Source of the DNA: Escherichia phage SP27
Reading direction: 5' to 3' (one strand)
Length of the DNA stretch: 64,000 nt
Sequence record: LC494302.1
Every line of letters begins with the position of its first letter. Position 1 is the first letter of the stretch. Made by a program: the position numbers and the translations under genes. The notes under the pieces are model-generated. The model was not told where the DNA came from, searched no databases, and was given only the letters and a program-made list of their open reading frames with translations. Below are positions 33,356 to 45,820 of this stretch, piece by piece.

Positions 33356-33390
33356 AAAGGTTGACTTCGGTCAGCCTTTTTTGTTATAAT
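33356..33390 (+). promoter_or_regulatory. PeSL-like terminator/promoter hybrid
   Basis: AAAGGTTGAC-ttcg-GTCAGCCTTTTTT; TTGACT lies in the stem, TATAAT 18 bp downstream. Confidence 0.6.
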
Positions 33391-33418
33391 TCTCTTAATA
33401 AATTAGAGGATTTTAATT

Positions 33419-33859
33419 ATGTATGTATATCGTTTTGAACTTAAATTTAGTTACATTGAACCTAACTTAGATCCTGCACGAACTGTAGGTCCGTTTGCAC
33501 GGTATTCAACCAGATACAGTACTAAAAATGGATTTGACCGTTTGCTTATGACTACACCTTCTCAATTCCAACCTGAACCAACTGAGGATGGGATCTATTC
33601 AATCAAAAGTGGATGGGTATTTGGCTGTCAAAGTTTGAAAGATTTGTTCAGATTCTTCACTATGGACTTGGGTAAATTGCATCGTGCTGGGTTTGCTATA
33701 TCTGTATATGAAGTTCCAGACCACCATGTAGACATTGGTCGTAATCAGGTTCAGTACTATTGCGGTAGTGCTAAATTAGTTCGTATCATGTCAGTTAAGG
33801 AAGCAAAGGATGAGTTCCGACAAAGTAAAAGAGAAACACATGAGGTAATATATGGATAA
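33419..33859 (+). CDS. hypothetical protein
   Basis: 146 aa, AGAGGA RBS. Confidence 0.5.
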   Translation: MYVYRFELKFSYIEPNLDPARTVGPFARYSTRYSTKNGFDRLLMTTPSQFQPEPTEDGIYSIKSGWVFGCQSLKDLFRFFTMDLGKLHRAGFAISVYEVPDHHVDIGRNQVQYYCGSAKLVRIMSVKEAKDEFRQSKRETHEVIYG

Positions 33860-34196
33860 AACTCAAATAGAATTAAAGAAATTTGTTTCATTCTATCTTC
33901 CTGATGACCCACGTAATTCACAAAAAGATATTGAATATTATAATATCCTATCTAAACAGTTAATGAGAAAGTTTCAACAGTGTTTAACTATATTCAATAC
34001 AGATGGAAGACGTAGATACCGAATCGTTTCAATGAATGATGAAAACGCAAATTTCTTTGATTACGATGTAGTTTTTAGAGCATATAATGATGATCGTATA
34101 AAATTAAATTATGATCAAATTATACTTGACCTGAATGTTATATGTGTTATAATCACTCACGTAGCCGAACTTAATGGTTTTAAAGAATGGTATTGA
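33852..34196 (+). CDS. hypothetical protein
   Basis: 114 aa. Confidence 0.45.
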   Translation: MDKTQIELKKFVSFYLPDDPRNSQKDIEYYNILSKQLMRKFQQCLTIFNTDGRRRYRIVSMNDENANFFDYDVVFRAYNDDRIKLNYDQIILDLNVICVIITHVAELNGFKEWY

Positions 34197-34210
34197 ATAG
34201 AGGATAACAT

Positions 34211-34477
34211 ATGAAGCTTAAATTACAATATAATGGATTTACTTTACGTAATGATACTGAATTTATTAATCGTTCTCCTGGTGCTGAACTGTTTTTACGA
34301 GAGATGAACATTCCTTTCATCATTACTACAGTGGGCGACCGTGAAGTTCTACAATATGCAGAGCATCCGATTATTGATGTTCCTTGGTACTCTGAGCATA
34401 TGTACATGGATATGGCACGTCGCTACAACTGTAAGTTCGTAGTTGAAGGTGATAAAATTACAGTCGAATTTAAATAA
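34211..34477 (+). CDS. hypothetical protein
   Basis: 88 aa, AGAGGATAA RBS. Confidence 0.45.
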   Translation: MKLKLQYNGFTLRNDTEFINRSPGAELFLREMNIPFIITTVGDREVLQYAEHPIIDVPWYSEHMYMDMARRYNCKFVVEGDKITVEFK

Positions 34478-34489
34478 GGTAAATTAAAA

Positions 34490-34783
34490 ATGATCAGTAC
34501 TTCAGTTAATGAAAGCATCGTCGCTGACGTAGAAATGGTTAAAGAATGTGCAGATGAAACTCTTCGTGATATGTACATTAATGATTTAATTACTGAATAC
34601 GGTAGTCGTGGTGTACACGAATTTATTCGTTTAAGTGGAGAGTTGATGAAAAATCGAATTCGTATGAAGCTTAACGTACATCCAAAAGCATGGGCATTTA
34701 CATTAAAATACGCAGAAGATATTGTTAATTTGCGTCGAACTGAAGTATATGAACGTTTGCACAATGGTATGTTAGATAAATGA
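34490..34783 (+). CDS. hypothetical protein
   Basis: 97 aa. Confidence 0.45.
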   Translation: MISTSVNESIVADVEMVKECADETLRDMYINDLITEYGSRGVHEFIRLSGELMKNRIRMKLNVHPKAWAFTLKYAEDIVNLRRTEVYERLHNGMLDK

Positions 34784-34792
34784 TTGTAAAAT

Positions 34793-34819
34793 AGGAATTC
34801 TTAAATGAATTCCTTTTTG
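34793..34819 (+). terminator. intrinsic terminator
   Basis: AGGAATTC-ttaaat-GAATTCCT plus T5. Confidence 0.55.
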
Positions 34820-34835
34820 TTTATAAGGTATAGTA

Positions 34836-35057
34836 ATGAAATATATAGTACTTGTACTGATATTATTCAGTACTGTTGTAAGTGCTAAACAAAAAGAATA
34901 TGTTAAATGTATAAATTATGAAGAGAAATATGTTGAAACATATAAAAAAAGTATAATTAAAAACGTTTCGATTACTAACAGAGCAACAATCATTGTACTT
35001 AAAAATGGGTTAATTATGCTATATAAACCACACGTTAAATGTGAAATTATTAATTGA
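34836..35057 (+). CDS. secreted small protein
   Basis: Signal peptide MKYIVLVLILFSTVVSA. Confidence 0.4.
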   Translation: MKYIVLVLILFSTVVSAKQKEYVKCINYEEKYVETYKKSIIKNVSITNRATIIVLKNGLIMLYKPHVKCEIIN

Positions 35058-35064
35058 GGAAATT

Positions 35065-35637
35065 ATGAATCGTAAAGGTCGTTTTAAAGTATCAAAAAAG
35101 AACAAAAGTTCTAGGTTTAAACCTATTGTTTTAACAGTTAAATCTAACAAAGATTTAACTGCACTTAGTAAAAAGATAATTTCATCTAAGATTGAAGTAT
35201 CATACGTAAATTCATTAAAATATATGAATGTCAAACCACTGGACCAACTCATTTCACTTATATTTGAACGTAATGATTTTGAGATATCAGTAGATGATTA
35301 TAGAGCCTATAATGCTGGTTTCATTAATGTTACTTGTAATAAAAAACTAACTGAGTTGGAAAATTTGTCATGTATAATAAATCTAGATAAAGGTGTTGTG
35401 AAGTACCATTTTGTACATTTCACTAATATCAATAATGGAATGGGTGTACAATCCAGACCTATAGTGCCTACGTGTGATGTTACTAAATTAGCAAAGCTCA
35501 ATGATGAAGAATATTTTCAAGAAAGCATTGTAACTGAGCATTTAGATGATATAATAGCTACTTACAAAGAATGCATATGGGTGTTGAATGCTATAAAACC
35601 TAAATTGTGTTTAATGAATATTGTTCGTGATTTATGA
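35065..35637 (+). CDS. hypothetical protein, FQ-motif family
   Basis: Start at MNRKG after GAGGAAA; NDEEYFQESIVTEHLDD near C-terminus. Confidence 0.5.
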   Translation: MNRKGRFKVSKKNKSSRFKPIVLTVKSNKDLTALSKKIISSKIEVSYVNSLKYMNVKPLDQLISLIFERNDFEISVDDYRAYNAGFINVTCNKKLTELENLSCIINLDKGVVKYHFVHFTNINNGMGVQSRPIVPTCDVTKLAKLNDEEYFQESIVTEHLDDIIATYKECIWVLNAIKPKLCLMNIVRDL

Positions 35638-35650
35638 ATGGGGAATCGTA

Positions 35651-36094
35651 ATGAGTTGGGTAAATGTTAATAGTATTGAACTTAACGAACAAGATATTTT
35701 TGCATTTGTAAATTTAACTAATAACACAGTACTAAAAGGGCGTTTGTTCAGTGCTAGTGATGGGTACAAATGGATCTCTTTGATGGATGATAGTGGTGTG
35801 ATTTATAATGTAATGCAATTACCCCAATGGGTATATAGTAACACTGCTGACGATGTTCTTACCGCAGTTATGCGTGAGTTTGAAAAACTCCCAGGTGGTG
35901 ATATCAAAAACAAAGTTTTTAATGCAGAACGTAAAAATTATACAGCACAGCAGTTGGAATCCGTTGCCATTGCTGCTTATCAAGCTGCTATTAAGAAGCC
36001 AGAGTGCGTTATTCTTAAGTATGTACCAGACTTAAAACTTACGTTGGAAGACATGGATGCATTCATTTTTACATCTGAACTTGATCAGTACTAA
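35651..36094 (+). CDS. hypothetical protein
   Basis: Start at MSWVNVN; 147 aa. Confidence 0.5.
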   Translation: MSWVNVNSIELNEQDIFAFVNLTNNTVLKGRLFSASDGYKWISLMDDSGVIYNVMQLPQWVYSNTADDVLTAVMREFEKLPGGDIKNKVFNAERKNYTAQQLESVAIAAYQAAIKKPECVILKYVPDLKLTLEDMDAFIFTSELDQY

Positions 36095-36210
36095 TTTAAC
36101 TTTGGGACAACCATTCTTATTATGATATAATGTTTTATGTCATTCGATATAAATGACAAACGGAACTATAAATATTATAGTAAAATTTATCTCTTATAGG
36201 AGTTATAAAA

Positions 36211-36594
36211 ATGGTTGATAAATGGAATAAGAAAGATCCATCACATGATGTTGATATTTCTGGTCTAGACAATGCACATAAGCACAAGTATCTAGATTCA
36301 CTAGGTCTTCTAAAACCAGACCAAAGTCTTGCACATGATCGTCCATCCCGTGAAAAAGCATTTAGCCTAGAATCACTAGGTCATGAGCTTAATCGTGTGT
36401 TTGAGGATCACCCAATCTATGTACGTGATATTATCGAGAAACTTAAAGTAACTCCTAAAGAGCACTTTAAAGCAACTGTACACTCTGCATTCCGTGCATT
36501 ACATGAATCTCTAAAGAAAACTCACAATCTTCGTAAAATTCATGATGAAATCGTGAATGCAATCGAAAGTGAAAAACATAAGTTCAAGAAGTAA
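36211..36594 (+). CDS. hypothetical protein (SLGLL-motif, paralogous domain with 36840)
   Basis: 127 aa, TAGGAG RBS; motif YLDSLGLLKPDQ. Confidence 0.5.
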   Translation: MVDKWNKKDPSHDVDISGLDNAHKHKYLDSLGLLKPDQSLAHDRPSREKAFSLESLGHELNRVFEDHPIYVRDIIEKLKVTPKEHFKATVHSAFRALHESLKKTHNLRKIHDEIVNAIESEKHKFKK

Positions 36595-36597
36595 TAA

Positions 36598-36632
36598 AAA
36601 GGGTTGACTAAGGTCAGCCCTTTGTTGTATCA
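36598..36632 (+). promoter_or_regulatory. PeSL-like terminator/promoter hybrid (variant loop)
   Basis: AAAGGGTTGAC-taag-GTCAGCCCTTTG; weaker -10. Confidence 0.5.
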
Positions 36633-36662
36633 TAACTTCTCAATATAACTGAGGTATCATAT

Positions 36663-36776
36663 ATGCAAGGTTTAAAATTTGTAGTTGCTGCACTCATCGC
36701 CGCAGTACTGGTTGGTGGTGTATTCTATGTAGTGGATCAAAAAGTAAATCCACCTGCACAAGAACAATCTAAGTAA
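36663..36776 (+). CDS. small single-TM protein
   Basis: 37 aa ORF MQGLKFVVAALIAAVLVGGVFYVV, bracketed by two PeSL elements. Confidence 0.3.
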   Translation: MQGLKFVVAALIAAVLVGGVFYVVDQKVNPPAQEQSK

Positions 36777-36782
36777 CAAAAT

Positions 36783-36815
36783 AAGGTTGACTTCGGTCAG
36801 CCTTTTCTTTATACT
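36783..36815 (+). promoter_or_regulatory. PeSL-like terminator/promoter hybrid
   Basis: AAGGTTGAC-ttcg-GTCAGCCTTTT; TTGACT-17-TATACT. Confidence 0.6.
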
Positions 36816-36839
36816 ATAAATATAGACATAGAGAAAAAA

Positions 36840-38117
36840 ATGAAATCTATGGAGAGAAATCAAATGCCAAGTAATTTTACTGATAAAAATGGTGGTAACA
36901 TGGCTGGTCACTCTGATAAATGGAGTGAACGCAACCGCCGTCCAAATAGTTATCAAGCAGGTCAAGGTTCACGTGGATCACGTAACCAAGGAACTGGTCT
37001 AGCTGGTAAAGCAAACGCAGAAGCAGGTGAAGTTAAGAGTACTGAGAACATGACTGAGCTAGAAAAGCTACGTTATGTTAATTCATTGGGACTTCTTAAT
37101 GCTACACAAAAACAACGCCTAGCTGATATGGAACGTGAAGAAAAAGAAAAGTCTGCTCCTGCGAAAGAAGAACCAAAACAAGAAGCACCAAAGGCGGTTA
37201 ACCCTGTCAAAGAACTGTCTGATAAGTTAGGTAAGATTTTTGCTAATAAACCACAACTTATCCAAGGTATTGTGAAAGAATTGCAATCTGTACCTAAAGA
37301 AGAATTAAAAGTCAAAGCACAAGCTGTGCTTGATGCAATGAGTGGAAATACCAGTACTGAACCAACTGAAGTATTCAGTACTATAATGCGTGCACTTGAA
37401 GGTACGCAACAAGGTGATGTGCCTGCACAAGAGGAAGTAAGTCTTGAAAGCGTACTTAAAACATTTGATAGTATTGGTAAAGAAGACCGTGCTAATGCTC
37501 AACAAGTTAAGAATGTACTAGCTAAGTTAGAAAACCGTCTGGAAGGTAAAGACGATAAGATTAAATTAGTATCTGATGCAGTTAACGATGCACTTAAATC
37601 TTATGTACAAGGTGAAAAGAGTCGTTTTGTAACTGCAATGGATGCTGCATTCAATACTATGAAAAAGTATGAAGCTGATCATGGTGAGAAGGTTACACGA
37701 GATGGTTATCTGATGCGTGATGATGAAGAAGGTGCAGTAGAACAGAACGATGTTCATTCAGACGAAGAAATTGATGACATGGAAGCTGAACTGTCACAAG
37801 ACCGCCAAATGACTGAAAAATCCCATAACGAACTACAGAAATTAATGCAATGGGTTGCAGATGTTGGTGAAAAAGCTGGTGCTGATAAGAAGAGTATAAA
37901 TCGAAATCTTAGTTGGATTAAAGATAAAGTTGGTAACAACGCTCGTAAACTACAAAAAGCGTGGACTGATGTAGTGAATGGTGCTGTTGATATTGATGTT
38001 GAATCCGGTGAGGCATATGATTATGCATTGACTACACTTGATGACTCTTTCCGTGATTACGAAAATGGAAATGTAACTCCTTGGGAAAAGGACATCATGA
38101 GCAAATACGGTAAATGA
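36840..38117 (+). CDS. hypothetical protein, K/E/Q-rich (SLGLL motif)
   Basis: 425 aa; low-complexity basic N-terminus, LRYVNSLGLLNATQ motif, charged helical body. Confidence 0.55.
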   Translation: MKSMERNQMPSNFTDKNGGNMAGHSDKWSERNRRPNSYQAGQGSRGSRNQGTGLAGKANAEAGEVKSTENMTELEKLRYVNSLGLLNATQKQRLADMEREEKEKSAPAKEEPKQEAPKAVNPVKELSDKLGKIFANKPQLIQGIVKELQSVPKEELKVKAQAVLDAMSGNTSTEPTEVFSTIMRALEGTQQGDVPAQEEVSLESVLKTFDSIGKEDRANAQQVKNVLAKLENRLEGKDDKIKLVSDAVNDALKSYVQGEKSRFVTAMDAAFNTMKKYEADHGEKVTRDGYLMRDDEEGAVEQNDVHSDEEIDDMEAELSQDRQMTEKSHNELQKLMQWVADVGEKAGADKKSINRNLSWIKDKVGNNARKLQKAWTDVVNGAVDIDVESGEAYDYALTTLDDSFRDYENGNVTPWEKDIMSKYGK

Positions 38118-38123
38118 TAAAAC

Positions 38124-38160
38124 AAAAGGTTGACTTCGGTCAGCCTTTTTTTGTAAATAC
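38124..38160 (+). promoter_or_regulatory. PeSL-like terminator/promoter hybrid
   Basis: AAAAGGTTGAC-ttcg-GTCAGCCTTTTTTT. Confidence 0.55.
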
Positions 38161-38188
38161 AAAAGAGGAATTAAGAAGAGGGATTACA

Positions 38189-38440
38189 ATGAAAAAATAT
38201 ATTATATTTGGAATTGTATTATTTTCCAGTACTGCTTATGGTGCAGATTATCATTGCTCCGTAGCAAGGCAGGATTTCAGAAATGGGGAGTTCTATACTA
38301 CCTCATACACAAAAGGAATAATACACGACACCGACAGAACTATTGGATTTAATGCGTTTGACAACAAAGATTCATATACTTCAGGTATACTATCTGAGCG
38401 TAAGACTGATGTAATGGGAATAGAAAAAGAGTTTCGGTGA
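38189..38440 (+). CDS. secreted small protein
   Basis: Start at MKKYIIFGIVLFSSTAYGADY; upstream in-frame codons are the PeSL itself. Confidence 0.45.
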   Translation: MKKYIIFGIVLFSSTAYGADYHCSVARQDFRNGEFYTTSYTKGIIHDTDRTIGFNAFDNKDSYTSGILSERKTDVMGIEKEFR

Positions 38441-38444
38441 TTCC

Positions 38445-38774
38445 GTGGCAATGTGTAATGACATTGAAAGTACTAAAACAATTTATTATAATAATGAACG
38501 TAACTATCGTTTTCATAATTTAACCACAAATAAAAGTTTACTATTTTACAATTGTAAAGAAGTAATACTCCCATCAGACAATAGCTGTACTCCAACTAAT
38601 CAACCCCCAGCACAATGTAATACTCCCTCTGAACCTGATAAAAATAAAAAAGACAAAGATAAAGATAAAAAAGAAGACAAAAAACCTTTAAAAGATAAAA
38701 AGAAAGATAAAAAACCTAATCCGTTTAAAAATAATAAACCAGCACAACCCGATATGACGTGTAAAATAAAATAA
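38445..38774 (+). CDS. lysine-rich hypothetical protein
   Basis: 109 aa with KDKDKDKKEDKKPLKDKKKDKK tract. Confidence 0.35.
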   Translation: MAMCNDIESTKTIYYNNERNYRFHNLTTNKSLLFYNCKEVILPSDNSCTPTNQPPAQCNTPSEPDKNKKDKDKDKKEDKKPLKDKKKDKKPNPFKNNKPAQPDMTCKIK

Positions 38775-38783
38775 GGATATATA

Positions 38784-39203
38784 ATGAAAAAGATTTTTTT
38801 AAGTATTATTTTAGTACTTTTTAGTTTTAATGTATATGCAGCAGATGCTAAACAGGTTGCTAATACAGTAAAAGATGTTATAGTAGACAATGCTCCTACC
38901 TTAGAGGAAATTGGGGTAAAAACTTGTGATATAGTAATATATAATTTAGTTAATGATGAACGAGTTATGTTGAATACGTATGAACAAGTAGTCCCATTGG
39001 TTGAATCTGGTGATGCTTTTAGCTTTACATATAAAGTTAAATTAACAGGAGGGGTTGAAGTTAATCTTGACATTGATACCGCTTCAGTACTAAAAGATAA
39101 ACTAGGATATGTGTTCAATCGTATTCGTGAAGAAGGTCATCTTAAGTATGTTTATGAAAGTAAAATACTAAAACGTGCAATAGTTATAGAAAACTGTAAA
39201 TGA
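38784..39203 (+). CDS. secreted protein
   Basis: Signal peptide MKKIFLSIILVLFSFNVYAADA; AAGGATATA RBS. Confidence 0.5.
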   Translation: MKKIFLSIILVLFSFNVYAADAKQVANTVKDVIVDNAPTLEEIGVKTCDIVIYNLVNDERVMLNTYEQVVPLVESGDAFSFTYKVKLTGGVEVNLDIDTASVLKDKLGYVFNRIREEGHLKYVYESKILKRAIVIENCK

Positions 39204-39207
39204 TAAT

Positions 39208-39244
39208 AAAAGGGTTGACTTCGGTCAGCCTTTTTTGTTATGAT
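39208..39244 (+). promoter_or_regulatory. PeSL-like terminator/promoter hybrid
   Basis: AAAAGGGTTGAC-ttcg-GTCAGCCTTTTTT; TTGACT-18-TATGAT. Confidence 0.6.
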
Positions 39245-39272
39245 GTTGATATTAACTACAGAGGATAAAGTA

Positions 39273-39914
39273 ATGACTAAGCAAGAAATATTCAAAACTT
39301 TAATTGACATTTTGCGTCCATCAAAAACTCGTTGTGCGATGGAGTTTGATATTCCTTATGCTGAACGCGTAATCTTTCCACAAGTTAAAGCTGCTGGACT
39401 TACTTTGCTTGGAATGGGGATGTACTCTGTAGTAGTTGAACATAAAAACTATCCTGGACGAGCATTTAAAGTAACCACTTCACGCTGGGATGGTTTTCGT
39501 GCTTATGCAAAGTACTGCATTGAAAACGCAGGAACCAAGTTTCTTCCAGTGATCTACAGTGCCAACGAACAAGGAAACTTTGGATGGTATGAGATGGACA
39601 AGTACTATCCTATAATTAAACAAAAAAATAATTATGATGACTTTGTTAGTACTAAAATTGGAGATTTATATTCTTATGCACATGCTGGTCAGTACGCTAC
39701 TTCAGTGAATGATATGCGTGGAAATTCTGAAGAGATTGCTATTGCGACGGTCGCTGCTAACATCATGAAAGAGTTTCACGGGCGTTTTGTACCAGACATT
39801 CATTCAAGTAATGTAATGATGGATAAAGATGGGAATGTATTCATTACTGATCCTCTTTCGTGTGATGTGCGTAGAGAAATACCAATTACTGAAGAAGATC
39901 CAGTTTTTTATTGA
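39273..39914 (+). CDS. atypical kinase-like protein (tentative)
   Basis: Start at MTKQEIF after GAGGATAAAG; DIHSSNVMMDKDGNVFITDP resembles HxDxxxxN catalytic loop and metal-binding D of APH/choline-kinase-like kinases. Confidence 0.4.
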   Translation: MTKQEIFKTLIDILRPSKTRCAMEFDIPYAERVIFPQVKAAGLTLLGMGMYSVVVEHKNYPGRAFKVTTSRWDGFRAYAKYCIENAGTKFLPVIYSANEQGNFGWYEMDKYYPIIKQKNNYDDFVSTKIGDLYSYAHAGQYATSVNDMRGNSEEIAIATVAANIMKEFHGRFVPDIHSSNVMMDKDGNVFITDPLSCDVRREIPITEEDPVFY

Positions 39915-39975
39915 CAGAACTGATGTTCTGATGTATTCTTAATAAACCATAAAAATTGCGGTAAAGGATAAAATC

Positions 39976-40257
39976 ATGCGTTCATTTGAAAACTTAATAG
40001 GTAAGCATCTTTTATCTGAAATTGATGCAGACGTTAAAGAATTATCCAAATCAAAAAGTTACATTCATTTGGATGAACTATTTGTTAAGTACGGTGAGAT
40101 TGGTTTTAAGTCATTATTTGTTTTTACTATGAAAGTACATAGTTTAAAGTACTTCGATTTGAGTGCTAAAGATGGTGAACCGAATCTATATTACATGTAT
40201 TACCTTAAGAACAAAGATGAAGCTAATACATTACTCTCTGAATATATATTGGGGTAA
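39976..40257 (+). CDS. hypothetical protein
   Basis: 93 aa, AAAGGATAAA RBS. Confidence 0.4.
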   Translation: MRSFENLIGKHLLSEIDADVKELSKSKSYIHLDELFVKYGEIGFKSLFVFTMKVHSLKYFDLSAKDGEPNLYYMYYLKNKDEANTLLSEYILG

Positions 40258-40259
40258 AA

Positions 40260-40598
40260 ATGGAACAATATTTTGAATTAATAAACAAAGTATCATTTTA
40301 TGTAGTATCTTTGGTTTGGGTGTATTATATGTTTTGCTACATTATTGCATTCTTCCGATACACTACTTTATATGAACGTATCTACTATGATGCCCCAATT
40401 TCATTCTTGATGTTTTGTGCATGTACGTGGGGAATATTAGAAGTACTGATATGTGGGTATAGTACTGATGAATTAAATCTGGTATCGGTCTTGACTGGGT
40501 TTTCATTTGTTGTTATGATAGCTGCCGTTCCAGTATGGTTGTTCTTTGGACTAGTTCATCGCATTGATATATGGCGTTCTAATATCCCTGAAAAGTAA
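40260..40598 (+). CDS. small multi-TM protein, array A member 1
   Basis: 112 aa, 3-4 TM helices, basic tail RSNIPEK. Confidence 0.5.
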   Translation: MEQYFELINKVSFYVVSLVWVYYMFCYIIAFFRYTTLYERIYYDAPISFLMFCACTWGILEVLICGYSTDELNLVSVLTGFSFVVMIAAVPVWLFFGLVHRIDIWRSNIPEK

Positions 40599-40607
40599 GG
40601 ATTGGTA

Positions 40608-40949
40608 ATGATTTATTACACTAACATGTTTGCCTATGCTGTTGCTTGCATTTACATTGTTTACTTCTTATTTGGTGGAGTACTGTGCTTCTTTAAGTAC
40701 AAAACGTTGTTCAACCGAATGTACCCAAATCATCCAATTGTAGTTGTACTTTTGATTCTTTCAGTTTCTCAAATAATCGTTGAAACTACAATGGGTATCA
40801 GTAGTGTACATTATAGTTTTGGTACTATAGTAATTATTACTATGCTTATTGCATACATTTTAGTACTTGGATATGGTATCTTTGGTAATATTGGTATGAA
40901 AATGTATCATCGAATTAAAACATTACGTGATAATCTACCGGAGCGTTGA
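40608..40949 (+). CDS. small multi-TM protein, array A member 2
   Basis: Paralog; tail LRDNLPER. Confidence 0.5.
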   Translation: MIYYTNMFAYAVACIYIVYFLFGGVLCFFKYKTLFNRMYPNHPIVVVLLILSVSQIIVETTMGISSVHYSFGTIVIITMLIAYILVLGYGIFGNIGMKMYHRIKTLRDNLPER

Positions 40950-40950
40950 T

Positions 40951-41295
40951 ATGTATAATTTGAACCTAATCTCATATATTATAACAACACTGTTTACATT
41001 CTATGCCTTTGTTGGTATAATCCTACTGTACTTTAAATTTTATAAAGTGTTTAACCGTTTCTATCCTTCAATGGAGAATGAGTTTTTCTTTGTGTTGTAC
41101 GTATGTTACACATTCATGGCTACATGTTTCACTGTAGTCGATGGTGTCATCGGCATTAAAACTGCTGCACCAAATGGTAGTACGCTGGTTGCATTTATTC
41201 TTACCGGATTCCTTGCAACTTATATTGCCTTCATTGCAACATGGTCAGTGGTTGAATTTCTCTTGCGACTACGAAAGAATATGCCGAATCGATAG
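40951..41295 (+). CDS. small multi-TM protein, array A member 3
   Basis: Paralog; tail LRKNMPNR; TGATATG coupling. Confidence 0.5.
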   Translation: MYNLNLISYIITTLFTFYAFVGIILLYFKFYKVFNRFYPSMENEFFFVLYVCYTFMATCFTVVDGVIGIKTAAPNGSTLVAFILTGFLATYIAFIATWSVVEFLLRLRKNMPNR

Positions 41296-41304
41296 GAGAC
41301 ATAT

Positions 41305-41559
41305 ATGTTTGCATTGCGTAACAAAAACACTAAAGAAATATTATGTTTAGATACCGTATGGGATTGTGCGGGATCAACTACAGTTCTTGAAGAAGGAACT
41401 GGATATTGCGTGTTTGTTGTACATGATAGGAATGAACTCGAATTATTACTTGCTGAGTTCAATGCTGGTGGTAATCCTAACAGTACTGAATACCCTGAGA
41501 TTATCAATCCAGCACCACCAGGCTCTTATGAAATTCTACAACTGTGGGAGTTGAAGTAA
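41305..41559 (+). CDS. hypothetical protein
   Basis: 84 aa, AGGAGACA RBS. Confidence 0.45.
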   Translation: MFALRNKNTKEILCLDTVWDCAGSTTVLEEGTGYCVFVVHDRNELELLLAEFNAGGNPNSTEYPEIINPAPPGSYEILQLWELK

Positions 41560-41939
41560 TGCGTCAAATGCACAAAGTAACCGAGCTAAACAAGCGTCTG
41601 GTTAAACAATCAATGTTCGAGGATAAAGAGTCTTATTATAACTTTAAACGTGCAGTAGAGGCTGCTATCCACATTCAGAAGCTTAAAGAACGTGGTTGTA
41701 TTATTCTGGAAAATGGTTCGGAAGTTGTAACGGATGACTTTAGTGTAGCGTTTGATGTTTCACCTGACGGGACGCTATCAATGCCCCGCTTAGGAACTGG
41801 AAACATGACTGTTTGGGTTGGCTTCACTATGGGGAATGTACCTGGTACTGTGTACGTAGATGATGCGGAATTGAAAGACAGTTTCAAAAACTTATCGTAC
41901 CTTGAACCACAATACGCACATGAAATGAATTTATTTTGA
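41559..41939 (+). CDS. hypothetical protein
   Basis: Start at MRQMH, TAATG-coupled. Confidence 0.45.
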   Translation: MRQMHKVTELNKRLVKQSMFEDKESYYNFKRAVEAAIHIQKLKERGCIILENGSEVVTDDFSVAFDVSPDGTLSMPRLGTGNMTVWVGFTMGNVPGTVYVDDAELKDSFKNLSYLEPQYAHEMNLF

Positions 41940-41940
41940 G

Positions 41941-41969
41941 TTGACAAACACATTCAGTACTGTATAATG
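41941..41969 (+). promoter_or_regulatory. sigma70-like early promoter with CAGTACTG spacer
   Basis: TTGACA-aacacatTCAGTACTG-TATAAT. Confidence 0.55.
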
Positions 41970-42015
41970 TTTATCAAGGGGATGAACTTCTCATCCCCAC
42001 AATCGAGGAATTGTC

Positions 42016-42570
42016 ATGATTACTTTTAAGAAAACTGCTAACCACATCCATGAAATCTACATTAACGGTCACAAAGCTGGCCTTCTTCGTTTACTCGCCC
42101 ATCACCCTGATGCTACCGTATCTGATAATGAACCTAAAGATTGGCGTGTCTTTTTCTTTGGAAAGTACAGTGATTTTCAAGTATCAAACCTGAAGAACAT
42201 TCGTTCAGTATGCACGTTAACTGAAATTAAAGAAAAGTTAGCACAAGCATTGAAAACTAATCCAGATGGTGTTCTTCCACCTGATAACTTTGTAGAGAAA
42301 GGTTATGCCTTAGCTCATTTCAAAGATGGTACTATTCAATCTATCAGTACTGAATATGAATATCATTGGACTGAGTACTTCACTTATGGTTCGAGTAATA
42401 CATTGATGGATTCACGTAGTAAATTGGAAGAAGTACTGACTCGTATGAATGAACGCGAGCGTCAGTTATATGACAAACCAGAAATGTGGAGTTCAACTTA
42501 CATTGACCGTATTGACTATGTTATTATGACTCCAATCTTTGACACTGCTTACTATGATTCTTTGAAATAA
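42016..42570 (+). CDS. hypothetical protein
   Basis: 184 aa, GAGGAA RBS. Confidence 0.5.
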   Translation: MITFKKTANHIHEIYINGHKAGLLRLLAHHPDATVSDNEPKDWRVFFFGKYSDFQVSNLKNIRSVCTLTEIKEKLAQALKTNPDGVLPPDNFVEKGYALAHFKDGTIQSISTEYEYHWTEYFTYGSSNTLMDSRSKLEEVLTRMNERERQLYDKPEMWSSTYIDRIDYVIMTPIFDTAYYDSLK

Positions 42571-42581
42571 GGATAACTTAT

Positions 42582-42758
42582 ATGAAACTACGTACTCGTA
42601 ATCGACTGATGGATGCACTGTACCATGAACAGCTTTCACTGAATGAAGTGAAGCGTCAGTTAATGTACACATATCAGTTTCCCGCTCGCATTGCAAAACA
42701 ACGTGCTAAAGAATTGCTGAAAGAAGCAATAGAGTACTGGGAATCTGATTCGTACTAA
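42582..42758 (+). CDS. hypothetical small protein
   Basis: 58 aa basic ORF, AAGGATAA RBS. Confidence 0.3.
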   Translation: MKLRTRNRLMDALYHEQLSLNEVKRQLMYTYQFPARIAKQRAKELLKEAIEYWESDSY

Positions 42759-42797
42759 TATTACGTGATATGTCACGTTAATTAAGTGAGGCGATAA

Positions 42798-43049
42798 ATG
42801 AAAATATTATTAGTTCTAATACTACTAATAGTTTTACCATTTACTTTAGTATCCCCTGGACTTGCATGGAATGTATTTGTGTACTTAGTATGTACTATTG
42901 TAGTAAATGGTATCTTGTTCTTAGTTCTATTCATAAATGGAATAGGACACGGTGGAGGATGGACCAGTACTGCTGATATCGTACATAAAACCACTATGTC
43001 TTTATTTGTAATGTGGAATTTGTTCTGGACTTGGTTTGTGTTCTTCTAA
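42798..43049 (+). CDS. small membrane protein
   Basis: 83 aa, three hydrophobic helices, GTGAGGCG RBS. Confidence 0.4.
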   Translation: MKILLVLILLIVLPFTLVSPGLAWNVFVYLVCTIVVNGILFLVLFINGIGHGGGWTSTADIVHKTTMSLFVMWNLFWTWFVFF

Positions 43050-43057
43050 TTAAAAAT

Positions 43058-43429
43058 ATGAATATAGATTTGAAAGGTGCAACCCGAACTGTTATCCTCA
43101 TTGGGGAATACGCTATCAAGATTCCAACCTTCAAAAGCTGGAAGTTATTCCTAACTGGAATGATAGCTAACCTCAATGAACGTTCATGGATGCAGTACTC
43201 CAATCGTAGTGATAGTGGTATCTGCCCTACTTTGTGGTCATCATGTACAGGACTAGTAACTGTACAGAAACGTTGTAAGCCAGTTCAACATAGGGGTTTA
43301 TTTTGGGTGGAGTTGTGTGCTTTAGCATTGAATTCAGAGTTAAGTACTGACTTCTTTTATTCAGATGCGAAGCCAGAAAACTTTGGTTATCTGAATGGTA
43401 AGTTAGTTAAACTTGATTATGGAGATTAA
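43058..43429 (+). CDS. truncated eukaryotic-like protein-kinase-fold protein
   Basis: GEYAIKIP (VAIK-like), SDAKPENFG (HRDxKPEN-like), KLVKLDYG (DFG-like); ORF stops two residues after DYG. Confidence 0.5.
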   Translation: MNIDLKGATRTVILIGEYAIKIPTFKSWKLFLTGMIANLNERSWMQYSNRSDSGICPTLWSSCTGLVTVQKRCKPVQHRGLFWVELCALALNSELSTDFFYSDAKPENFGYLNGKLVKLDYGD

Positions 43430-43430
43430 G

Positions 43431-43700
43431 ATGTACGCACTGTATAATAAAGAAAAGAAACGATTTGCTAAGGTTGAAATTTCGATTGATACCTTTGATA
43501 TGTTGGAGTACTGTATTGTGACGGACCTATATGCTAACTTGTATTACGTTCTTGATGACGTATCAGTACTGCAACGATTGCTTGAGAATTCCAAAAGTCA
43601 ATGCCAGGGCATCCATGATGGTTCATCTTATGAAACACCTGAGTGTTCCTACGGCTATCTGGACGGGTATGAGATTGTGAAGTTGGGGATTGTTGAATAA
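43431..43700 (+). CDS. hypothetical protein
   Basis: 89 aa, follows kinase-like ORF. Confidence 0.4.
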   Translation: MYALYNKEKKRFAKVEISIDTFDMLEYCIVTDLYANLYYVLDDVSVLQRLLENSKSQCQGIHDGSSYETPECSYGYLDGYEIVKLGIVE

Positions 43701-43703
43701 AGA

Positions 43704-43739
43704 AAAGGGTTGACTACGGTCAGCCCTTTTTGCTATAAT
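43704..43739 (+). promoter_or_regulatory. PeSL-like terminator/promoter hybrid
   Basis: AAAAGGGTTGAC-tacg-GTCAGCCCTTTTT; TTGACT-18-TATAAT. Confidence 0.65.
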
Positions 43740-43767
43740 CATTTCATCGAAACGAGAGGATGAATAC

Positions 43768-44283
43768 ATGACACGCATTAACTTAGTACACGTTAAAGAA
43801 CTTGCTGACCAACATCTGATGGCTGAATATCGTGAACTCCCACGTGTATTTGGTGCTGTACAAAAACACGTTCAAGCACGTAAGCGTGTACGTGATTTCA
43901 AAATTAACAGTACTTATCTGTTAGGTTCAGGTCATGTGACATTCTTTTACGACAAGTTGCTGTACTTACAGAAGCGTCATATCGATATTGTTAACGAATG
44001 TTTGCGTCGTGGTATGAAGATTCAAAACACTGAAGTAAACGACATTAGCGGCTTCCCTGCTGAGTTTTGTAATGACTACGTACCAACGGAGTCAGAGATT
44101 AAAATGTCTCGTGATCGTTTGATTGAGAAGCTCCAGATGAAGCCTACGTGGTATAAGTTTACTGATGTTGAATGTCCACAGTACGTTAAAGATATGCAGA
44201 ACGTAAGTAGTAAGAACGAATCTAGTACTGATATGTTCGACGAAATTGAAGAACAAATCAAAGATGAAATGAATAATTATTAA
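43768..44283 (+). CDS. denV: endonuclease V (pyrimidine-dimer DNA glycosylase/AP lyase)
   Basis: [50 protein letters not shown] matches T4 endonuclease V as I recall it over most of its length. Confidence 0.8.
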
Positions 44284-44287
44284 AGGA

Positions 44288-44304
44288 AAGGGTTGACTTC
44301 GGTT
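44288..44304 (+). repeat. truncated PeSL remnant (5' arm only)
   Basis: AAGGGTTGACTTCGGTT then unrelated sequence. Confidence 0.45.
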
Positions 44305-44321
44305 ACACAAAGGAACATAAC

Positions 44322-44516
44322 ATGTTATTAGTATATTCAACGCGTTTCTGGATTTCTTTTATTGTACTATCGCTAATCGGCTTCGGTTTGAGTATACTCT
44401 TTTCGTGGGATGAATTGGGTACATGGTATTATGAAGTCCCGTGGTACATGAAGATAGCTCCTTGTTATGCGGCATTGTTCGTGTCATTCCTTATTGTTGT
44501 CTTCAGCGAGGATTAG
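44322..44516 (+). CDS. small membrane protein
   Basis: 64 aa; PWYMK motif shared with array B member at 46911. Confidence 0.4.
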   Translation: MLLVYSTRFWISFIVLSLIGFGLSILFSWDELGTWYYEVPWYMKIAPCYAALFVSFLIVVFSED

Positions 44517-44622
44517 TTGATGTAGTATGTGCTACACCAAAGTATTTGGATATTTTAGATATAAACATTGACACCTGTTATATCTTTCTGTATTATGTAC
44601 ATCACCAAATGAGGAATACAAC

Positions 44623-44982
44623 ATGGCATCTTTAAGTGAAATCGCAGAATACAACCCACTAACAATCTCAACAATTCAACGTACAAAAACTTTTTATTTC
44701 CGTCCTGCTGATGGATGGAAACGTGGAATGAATGGTGACTATCGAGTACTGGAAGATTCACTAATCGAGCGTATCAACTCTGAACTACAGAAGTATGAAG
44801 GTGTTAAAGTTGTGCGTTCAACTTCTCGTTATTTTGAGTACTACATTGAGTCTTCAACTGTAAATGAAAACTCATCATTATCGGTGGACAACACTGATAT
44901 TCTTCGTAATGCAGTTGGTATGTTATGCAACATTGCAGAAGAAATGGGATTAACTATTAGTACTATGAGTGAGTTGGAATAA
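44623..44982 (+). CDS. hypothetical protein
   Basis: 119 aa, GAGGAATA RBS. Confidence 0.5.
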   Translation: MASLSEIAEYNPLTISTIQRTKTFYFRPADGWKRGMNGDYRVLEDSLIERINSELQKYEGVKVVRSTSRYFEYYIESSTVNENSSLSVDNTDILRNAVGMLCNIAEEMGLTISTMSELE

Positions 44983-44984
44983 CA

Positions 44985-45020
44985 TAAAGGGTTGACTTCG
45001 GTCAGCCCTTTTTGCTATAA
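44985..45020 (+). promoter_or_regulatory. PeSL-like terminator/promoter hybrid
   Basis: AAAGGGTTGAC-ttcg-GTCAGCCCTTTTT; TTGACT-18-TATAAT. Confidence 0.65.
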
Positions 45021-45049: not shown

Positions 45050-45820
45050 ATGACCAGAGAAGCACGCAGCATTCAAATTCAGAAAAACTTCAACTCCATG
45101 ATGGTTGCTCTTGAGTGTTTGCTCGATGATAGCAGTACTGTAAAAAGTATGGTTGTCAGTGGTGCTCCTGGTGTTGGTAAGACTTACACCTTGTCCCAAC
45201 GTCTCCAGAAGGCTCATGACGCAGCAGAATGGAACGTAGCTACTATCAGTGGTAAGATGACTACACTGGCTCTGTACGAAGTTCTGTACAAGAATCGTCA
45301 CAGCACCAACGTGTTAGTACTGGATGATATGGACAGCATCTTTGATTCTGAAGACGGTATGAACCTGCTCAAAGCTGTTTTGGATAGTGGTAAGCGTACT
45401 GTATCTTATATGACTAGCTCTAAGTACTTGAGCACTAACGGCATTCCTAATAGCTTTGATTTTAATGGTCGCATCGTATTCATTACTAACAAAGATTTAG
45501 CGTTAGATGCTAAAGCTAAAACTAAAATGTCTGCTCATTATGCTGCTCTTATGTCTCGTTCTGTGTACGTGGATTTACAGATTCAGACTAAAAGTGATAT
45601 CATGATTCATATTGAAAATGTAATGACTAAGACTAATATCCTTGCATCTAAAGGTGTTAACAGTAACGGTAGTAAAGCAATTCTGAACTGGATGTTAAAA
45701 CATGAAGATAATCTTCGTGCACCATCCCTGCGTATGCCTTTGTTGATTTCAGCAGTATATAACAACAATCCGTATGATTGGGAAGAACAATGTGAAAACT
45801 TGTTCCTTGAGAAAATCTAA
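45050..45820 (+). CDS. P-loop NTPase (AAA+-like)
   Basis: Walker A GAPGVGKT, Walker B-like VLVLDDMD. Confidence 0.55.
   Translation: MTREARSIQIQKNFNSMMVALECLLDDSSTVKSMVVSGAPGVGKTYTLSQRLQKAHDAAEWNVATISGKMTTLALYEVLYKNRHSTNVLVLDDMDSIFDSEDGMNLLKAVLDSGKRTVSYMTSSKYLSTNGIPNSFDFNGRIVFITNKDLALDAKAKTKMSAHYAALMSRSVYVDLQIQTKSDIMIHIENVMTKTNILASKGVNSNGSKAILNWMLKHEDNLRAPSLRMPLLISAVYNNNPYDWEEQCENLFLEKI

Follow-up and report, generated by a model that had tools for sequence, protein, structure and literature searches.

A kinase-only relative of the phage T7 gp0.7 protein kinase predicted in Escherichia phage SP27

Does the open reading frame (ORF) at 39273-39914 of Escherichia phage SP27 encode a kinase and, if so, of what kind? 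The locus lies on the + strand of a 64-kb stretch of sequence record LC494302.1 (64,000 nucleotides, analysed as a whole and here called the window). A sequence-only reading had flagged it as a second, atypical kinase-like ORF of the aminoglycoside/choline-kinase type beside a promoter-early stem-loop (PeSL), a weak call drawn from one motif region. Our analysis, combining sequence comparison with a predicted structure, places the 213-residue product in the protein kinase family of phage T7 gp0.7 (T7K; Pfam PF27024), in a kinase-only form that lacks the C-terminal shut-off/DNA-binding domain of T7K. The kinase identification is correct but already known, because orthologues carry kinase annotations and jumbophage homologues have been described (PMC13645617, PMC11895373).

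Profile and pairwise comparisons carry the family assignment. The ORF matches PHROG 15752, a family that borrows its description from T7 gp0.7, at E = 4.7e-92, and the T7 gp0.7 family itself, PHROG 2828, at E = 8.1e-17. Reciprocally, T7 gp0.7 (gene 0.7, NC_001604, 2021-3100) matches PHROG 2828 at 1.6e-169 and PHROG 15752 at 1.7e-46; as the latter match covers T7 residues 6-222, the N-terminal helical part is homologous as well. BLASTP against T7 gp0.7 aligned residues 41-196 with T7 residues 68-216 (E = 6e-9, 27% identity), a span reaching from the glycine loop to the end of I-T-D-P-(L/V)-S, and a phmmer search with T7K against all ORFs of the window had this ORF as its sole match (8.8e-10). 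Whole-protein PHROG matches of this kind, together with motif invariance across 40 family members (below), raise the original one-motif call above chance.

Wider searches place the ORF among both jumbo-phage and T7-like proteins. A search of 5.8 billion proteins yielded 27 homologues, including one that is 99% identical (P0001), and all 27 carry a precomputed match to PF27024 (Phage_T7_kinase). Tblastn across 50,697 phage records found 773 that match, 27 with at least 60% identity and the other 746 with less; among the matches listed, the closer group consists of ~350-kb jumbo phages and the more distant one of ~40-kb T7-like phages at 25-32% identity, many of them annotated as serine/threonine kinase. 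A profile search of 1.84 billion representatives gave 1,470 clusters at E <= 1e-3, of which 193 reach E <= 1e-10.

The catalytic loop and downstream metal-binding Asp that had been seen in DIHSSNVMMDKDGNVFITDP (residues 175-194, nucleotides 39795-39854, + strand) are present, whereas the literal H-x-D-x-x-x-x-N motif is not. The stretch reads F-V-P-D-I-H-S-S-N, with Val two residues before D175 and His two after it, and the actual order is D-x-H-x-x-N (D175, H177, N180) followed by the metal-binding D193 13 residues past the Asn. The Asn-to-Asp distance of 13 residues is also that of PKA and other canonical protein kinases. The loop D175-I-H-S-S-N180 (39795-39812, +), with the predicted base Asp and Mg-binding Asn, aligns with D195-M-H-S-G-N200 of T7K, and HMMER places it on the catalytic loop of PAK4. 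In the family alignment, D193-P194-L195-S196 (39849-39860, +) forms a DFG-equivalent, 'DPV-like' motif that ends in the counterpart of T7K Ser216. On the N-terminal side, the putative glycine-rich ATP-binding loop G47-M-G49 (39411-39419, +) has its two glycines aligned by BLASTP with T7 G74 and G76, and K66 within AFKV (39468-39470, +), the presumptive ATP-anchoring Lys of beta-3, aligns with T7K K93.

These positions are strongly conserved. Twenty-three close homologues keep G47, G49, K66, D175, H177, N180, D193 and P194 without exception. Across a broader set of 40 aligned family members (19-56% identity, T7K included), G49, K66, D175, N180 and D193 are retained by 40/40, and G47 (37/40), H177 and P194 (each 39/40), D73, P92, M182, I191 and T192 are at least 90% conserved. 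Position 195 separates the two branches, with Leu in 22/23 of the jumbo-type homologues and mostly Val on the T7-like side. In T7K the G76F mutant, altered at the counterpart of G49, is a catalytically dead control (PMC13645617).

The predicted structure points the same way. An AlphaFold2 (AF2) model built from a 23-sequence alignment has a mean predicted local distance difference test (pLDDT) score of 92.9 and a predicted template modelling (pTM) score of 0.88. It opens with three helices (residues 3-40), followed by strands 44-48, 52-56 and 63-68, which we assign to beta-1, beta-2 and beta-3; G47-x-G49 falls between beta-1 and beta-2, and K66 lies on beta-3. Helix 75-84, assigned as alpha-C, leads into strands 94-100 and 103-109, a short hairpin (115-124), helices 127-139 and 152-168 and then the catalytic loop (175-180); the chain closes with two short strands, D193-P-L and a 20-residue tail that contains no helix. 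Foldseek searches with this model returned protein-kinase-like folds throughout the top PDB matches (DMPK, MRCK, MEK1, CHK1, CK1 and aPKC; APH(3')-IIIa at rank 6), at E ~1e-5 and TMq 0.35-0.44. In BFVD, the best match was a 62%-identical orthologue, also of 213 residues (TM 0.91), and ranks 2-9 were Autographiviridae entries labelled 'protein kinase' (E 2e-14 to 8e-12, TMq 0.63-0.75, mostly 0.70-0.75). The predicted fold is therefore much closer to T7K-type phage kinases than to any solved kinase. A phmmer search of PDB sequences aligned the right motifs of PAK4, GRK2 and AKT2 at E ~1, which is not significant alone. The sequence-only reading had proposed profile and structure searches as a check and would have been refuted had no kinase or phosphotransferase fold matched; kinase folds did match.

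On this evidence the kinase-like part of that reading stands, as an ORF with a predicted protein-kinase-like fold, and its aminoglycoside/choline-kinase part falls, with no Pfam match, no H-x-D and no C-terminal helical subdomain. A small-molecule kinase of the aminoglycoside, choline or Kdo type, with an antibiotic, sugar, lipid head group or metabolite as substrate, is accordingly very improbable. Neither the APH nor the choline-kinase family of Pfam matches at E <= 10, and a mere 20-residue tail follows the metal-binding Asp, whereas in APH and ChoK enzymes a C-terminal helical subdomain holds the substrate. T7K-type kinases are far closer (E 1e-14, TMq 0.70-0.75, reciprocal profiles), and theirs is an experimentally proven protein kinase family (PMC13645617). 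We give marginally less weight still to a pseudokinase or nucleotide-binding scaffold without transferase activity, or to a polynucleotide kinase like Ark1, a minimal RNA kinase of archaea. The first is unlikely because the G-x-G, Lys, catalytic Asp, Asn and metal-binding Asp are strictly conserved across the 40 members, the opposite of a pseudokinase pattern, and T7K, a highly active protein kinase, has a core truncated in the same way (PMC13645617); as for the second, the Ark1 match was weaker than some 20 protein-kinase matches. A catalytically competent, active protein kinase of the T7K family is the likely product, judging from sequence and model together.

How much of T7K function should then be credited to it? 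RefSeq records NC_025447 (121Q gp205) and NC_027364 (PBECO4), as well as the PHROG 15752 description, use the product name 'inhibitor of host transcription; positively regulates RNaseIII; negatively on RNaseE', which would imply the full T7 gp0.7 function set. Part of that set could in principle carry over, in that phosphorylation of RNase III and RNase E by T7 gp0.7 depends on the kinase domain. In T7K, however, transcription shut-off and a bias of phosphorylation towards nucleic-acid-binding proteins belong to the shut-off (SO)/DNA-binding domain, residues 243-359 (PMC13645617), and the protein here stops 20 residues past DPL. T7 residues 243-359, searched by phmmer against all ORFs of the window, gave nothing below E = 0.6. 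We therefore find the full function set improbable, if a shade less so than the alternatives above: the name is a transfer of the T7 annotation, and substrate choice is uncertain at 27% identity. Because the shut-off domain is missing from the 213-residue protein, the RefSeq/PHROG 15752 product name is an over-transferred T7 gp0.7 label that goes beyond the evidence; for annotation, the copied name overstates what can be inferred for this protein. Since the C-terminal SO domain is missing, the kinase would be expected to cause no kinase-independent transcription shut-off and to show no bias towards nucleic-acid-bound substrates.

Autographiviridae members typically have the SO domain, but the kinase domain family is not defined by it. 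Many members end 3-20 residues past the metal-binding Asp, so the family is marked by a very short region after the 'DFG' position, although contig ends may have truncated some of these ORFs. Another architecture appears among metagenomic proteins: P0036, P0037, P0039, P0040, P0042, P0054, P0068 and P0075 (572-1,343 residues) carry T7K-like minimal kinase domains in tandem, from two to five per protein, and several of these proteins have D-x-H-x-x-N...DP intact. They may be genuine multi-kinase proteins or may result from fused gene calls.

If the assignment is right, the G47-x-G49 loop and K66 would hold ATP, N180 and D193 would bind Mg2+ (with the D-P-L motif in place of DFG), and D175 would serve as catalytic base for transfer of the gamma-phosphate to protein hydroxyl groups. 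As the chain ends 20 residues past D193, the activation segment, the P+1 pocket and the canonical helices that follow are all missing; their absence leads us to expect constitutive activity with little sequence specificity, as experiments have shown for T7K. The kinase domain of T7K comprises residues 1-242, and its DPV motif (213-215) has been proposed to lock the enzyme in a DFG-in-like, constitutively active state (PMC13645617). Family-wide, the kinase core may work without an activation segment and later helices, with the conserved N-terminal three-helix bundle completing the C-lobe instead.

One possible brake on such an enzyme is S196 (39858-39860), the counterpart of Ser216, which is reported to be an inhibitory autophosphorylation site of T7K and to be conserved in all variants (PMC13645617). 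The residue is Ser in the clade to which the window belongs. Across 23 jumbo-type homologues, position 196 is Ala in 14, Gly in 7 and Ser in 2. With Ala or Gly at the site in 21/23, an S196 off-switch, if it operates, would be clade-specific.

The boundaries of the gene are supported from several sides. The ORF runs on the + strand from ATG at 39273 to a stop codon at 39912-39914, and a Shine-Dalgarno-like AGAGGA (39260-39265, +), found by direct reading of the sequence, lies 7 nucleotides before the ATG. An alternative in-frame ATG at 39240 would give a 224-residue product, the longer form used in the 121Q annotation; the 213-residue form is that of the G17 annotation of the orthologue. In 23 homologues, down to 40% identity, the aligned Met is the first residue (consensus MTKxEIFK), and the ATG at 39240 is overlapped by a predicted -10 hexamer (39239-39244). 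We prefer 39273 because of the AGAGGA spacing, the alignment of homologue starts and this overlap. The coordinates 39273-39914 given by the sequence-only reading are thus correct, with ATG, stop, Shine-Dalgarno and homologue starts in agreement. At the DNA level, the 1,601 bases from 38700 to 40300 match Escherichia phage vB_Eco_slurp01 (LT603033) at 100% identity and 121Q, G17, Sharanji, PBECO4 and phAPEC6 at ~99%. These relatives are ~350-kb Asteriusvirus jumbo myoviruses, and the window likewise belongs to an Asteriusvirus jumbo phage.

Immediately upstream stands a composite hairpin and promoter-like element. The hairpin, GGGTTGACTTCGGTCAGCC followed by T6 (39212-39236, +), consists of arm GGGTTGAC, loop TTCG, arm GTCAGCC and the T-run; it resembles an intrinsic terminator, closes the upstream gene (38784-39203) and lies 36 nucleotides before the start codon. 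The RNA of 39204-39245 folds at -15.7 kcal/mol (z = -5.08), as good a value being reached by 0/200 shuffles. Overlapping it is a sigma70-type promoter-like site (39215-39244, +) with TTGACT (39215-39220) inside the 5' arm of the hairpin, an 18-nucleotide spacer and TATGAT with a TG extension (39239-39244); it scored 10/12 matches plus the TG extension in the promoter scan, and the cassette lies 29 nucleotides upstream of the kinase start.

The element recurs. Within 3 mismatches, the window holds 6 copies of the 25-mer and 7 of its 16-nucleotide core, all on the + strand, where 0 are expected. The seven core copies begin at 33358, 36604, 36784, 38127, 39212, 43707 and 44989 and span 33358-45013; their consensus is (G/A)GGTTGACT(T/A)(C/A)GGTCAGCC(T/C) plus a T-run, with TTGACT in the stem. 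A TGnTATAAT-like -10 stands at the same distance in 4/6 aligned cassettes, with a spacing of 18 nucleotides. The orthologous sites in G17 are annotated as terminators, by ARNOLD at the kinase-upstream site. The stem-loop noted earlier beside the ORF is therefore a real hairpin (z = -5.1), present in seven copies in a PeSL-like architecture. We propose a candidate function for the cassette because the composite architecture repeats, not because of the promoter scan; the sequence suggests that the host polymerase transcribes the kinase gene early.

What might such a kinase do? T7K is a hyperpromiscuous Ser/Thr/Tyr kinase that phosphorylates nearly the whole host proteome and disarms defences, including DNA-associated defence systems (PMC13645617); its preference for such targets stems from the C-terminal DNA-binding domain. 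For the protein here, the analysis shows homology, fold, conservation of every catalytic residue, the missing SO domain and the upstream cassette, whereas we infer enzymatic activity, Ser/Thr/Tyr protein substrates, expression timing and biological role. The gene is probably transcribed early by the host polymerase, and its product would serve host takeover, the blunting of host defences or both, with host (and phage) proteins as targets. A hyperpromiscuous anti-defence role for the jumbo-phage kinase is an extrapolation from T7K that we hold only tentatively. The fuller version is similarly speculative: a free-standing, constitutively active 'minimal' T7K that would phosphorylate Ser, Thr and Tyr hyperpromiscuously, with no motif and no DNA tether, as an early anti-defence or takeover weapon of ~350-kb phages, and that in the 121Q/slurp01 clade would carry the S196 autophosphorylation off-switch, a position at which most other jumbo-type homologues have Ala or Gly. 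Such a natural kinase-only version could tell whether hyperpromiscuity resides in the minimal core alone, and what the kinase does when untethered from DNA.

Several observations weigh against this picture, in whole or in part. Identity to T7K is only 27%. Scans of the ORF against NCBIfam, and against a version of Pfam-A at E <= 10, matched no family, Pkinase, APH and choline-kinase included; as the scanned Pfam-A predates PF27024 and left T7 gp0.7 itself unmatched, the empty Pfam result is uninformative on kinase identity. In the literature searched we found no biochemical or genetic work on any jumbo-phage member. The promoter/terminator scan as a whole found 38 sites where shuffles gave 40.9, which is no enrichment. 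Further upstream, two related + strand ORFs (36211-36594 and 36840-38117) have their PHROG matches (16530 and 20398) in families called 'virion structural protein', a label they also bear in 121Q. Early timing is for these last two reasons not established. The two ORFs stand among hairpin/sigma70-promoter cassettes typical of early regions, and their products could be packaged or ejected. Nor was the Ser/Thr/Tyr depletion reported as a signature of T7-like phages evident in the + strand proteins of the window. Their content of these residues is 18.0%, compared with 25.8% in a - strand paralogue array, and is not below the ~14% of E. coli. We rejected such depletion as a sign of promiscuity in either direction, because protein class and AT-rich codon usage confound the comparison and make it unusable.

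The orthologues have largely been recognized. Proteins 96-100% identical in SHEFM2K and UE-S1 are labelled 'protein kinase', and the ~99% DNA-identical orthologues in 121Q, G17, phAPEC6 and UB carry the same kinase labelling. Identifiers include 121Q gp205, G17_00108 (QBO61604) and Sharanji WNN14432, with labels reading 'protein kinase' or 'putative protein kinase (PHA00451)'; in the slurp01 record the gene is a 'hypothetical protein'. The Sharanji orthologue has been described as a T7 kinase homologue, and the Sharanji genome is said to encode one more kinase, unrelated to it, at another place (PMC11895373). A 2026 Nature paper treats jumbophage homologues, such as those of G17 and Salmonella phage Munch, as divergent members of the T7K family in which the SO domain has been lost and whose function and promiscuity are still to be elucidated (PMC13645617).

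Within the window itself, the ORF had been called the 'second' of its kind, and we found no other. The family profile, run against all six-frame ORFs of the window, matched this ORF only; regular-expression scans of the window gave chance matches only; and Pfam searches of ten other large ORFs in the window produced only a sub-threshold P-loop NTPase at 45050-45820. That 256-residue + strand ORF has AAA/STAND-type P-loop matches (nSTAND_NTPase5 at 3.7e-6, AAA_16 at 7.9e-6, both sub-threshold) and directly follows the cassette hairpin at 44989-45013; it may be the 'first' kinase-like ORF that the sequence-only reading had in mind.

The kinase gene sits in a long one-directional array of small + strand genes with hairpin/promoter cassettes between them, and in metagenomic relatives the kinase likewise lies in one-directional arrays of small ORFan genes. 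Upstream, 38114-38440 and 38784-39203 encode small, predicted secreted proteins, and the downstream neighbour encodes a 93-residue protein. Beyond it, 40260-41295 (+) holds three tandem multi-pass membrane paralogues of ~112-115 residues that share a C-terminal R-x-N-(I/L/M)-P-(E/N)-(K/R); both of the two tested match PHROG 19285, which has no known function. On the - strand, 49850-63974 contains twelve tandem ORFs of 251-433 residues, nearly all of which resemble one another (25-35% identity in BLASTP, E 1e-6 to 1e-62), although one member (55978-56733, 251 residues) resembles the others only over short stretches. This array is Ser/Thr-rich, at ~26% Ser, Thr and Tyr against 18% in + strand genes.

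Set beside known systems, the locus is nearest to its own Asteriusvirus orthologues (121Q, G17, SHEFM2K, phAPEC6, UB and Sharanji), which have the same gene order and the same upstream hairpin and differ in nothing substantial. The cassette recalls the PeSL elements described for T4-like phages (PMC2839356, PMC4122927): like them, it sets a repeated, putative stem-loop terminator and a sigma70-like promoter sequence between small, variable, same-strand genes. It differs in its stem (GGTTGAC-TTCG-GTCAGCC), in having the -35 within the 5' arm and in occurring in Asteriusvirus rather than in the Tquatrovirinae, the group treated in PMC4122927.

Among kinases more broadly, the protein shares with Pkinase (PF00069), Rio and Bud32 a protein-kinase-like fold, equivalent residue roles and the Asn-Asp spacing, and its reduced C-lobe and lack of a classical activation loop are reminiscent of Rio and Bud32 in particular. 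Compared with canonical kinases (PF00069/PF07714), it has VPD and DPL for HRD and DFG, no APE, an extra three-helix N-terminal extension (3-40) and a chain that ends 20 residues past the metal-binding Asp, and it shows no significant sequence match to them. In the APH and choline kinases (PF01636, PF01633) the His comes before the Asp, whereas here it comes after, and their C-terminal substrate-binding subdomain is absent. The closest characterized likeness is to T7K. The two share the kinase domain, including its N-terminal helices, the G-x-G, Lys, D-x-H-x-x-N and I-T-D-P elements and enterobacterial phages as carriers; both do without the HRD arginine, the DFG and a long activation segment; and predicted structures superpose at TMq 0.70-0.75. 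They differ in length (359 residues in T7K, 213 here), in the motif that replaces DFG (DPV in T7K, DPL here) and in the phage that bears them, a 40-kb podovirus for T7K and a ~350-kb myovirus here.

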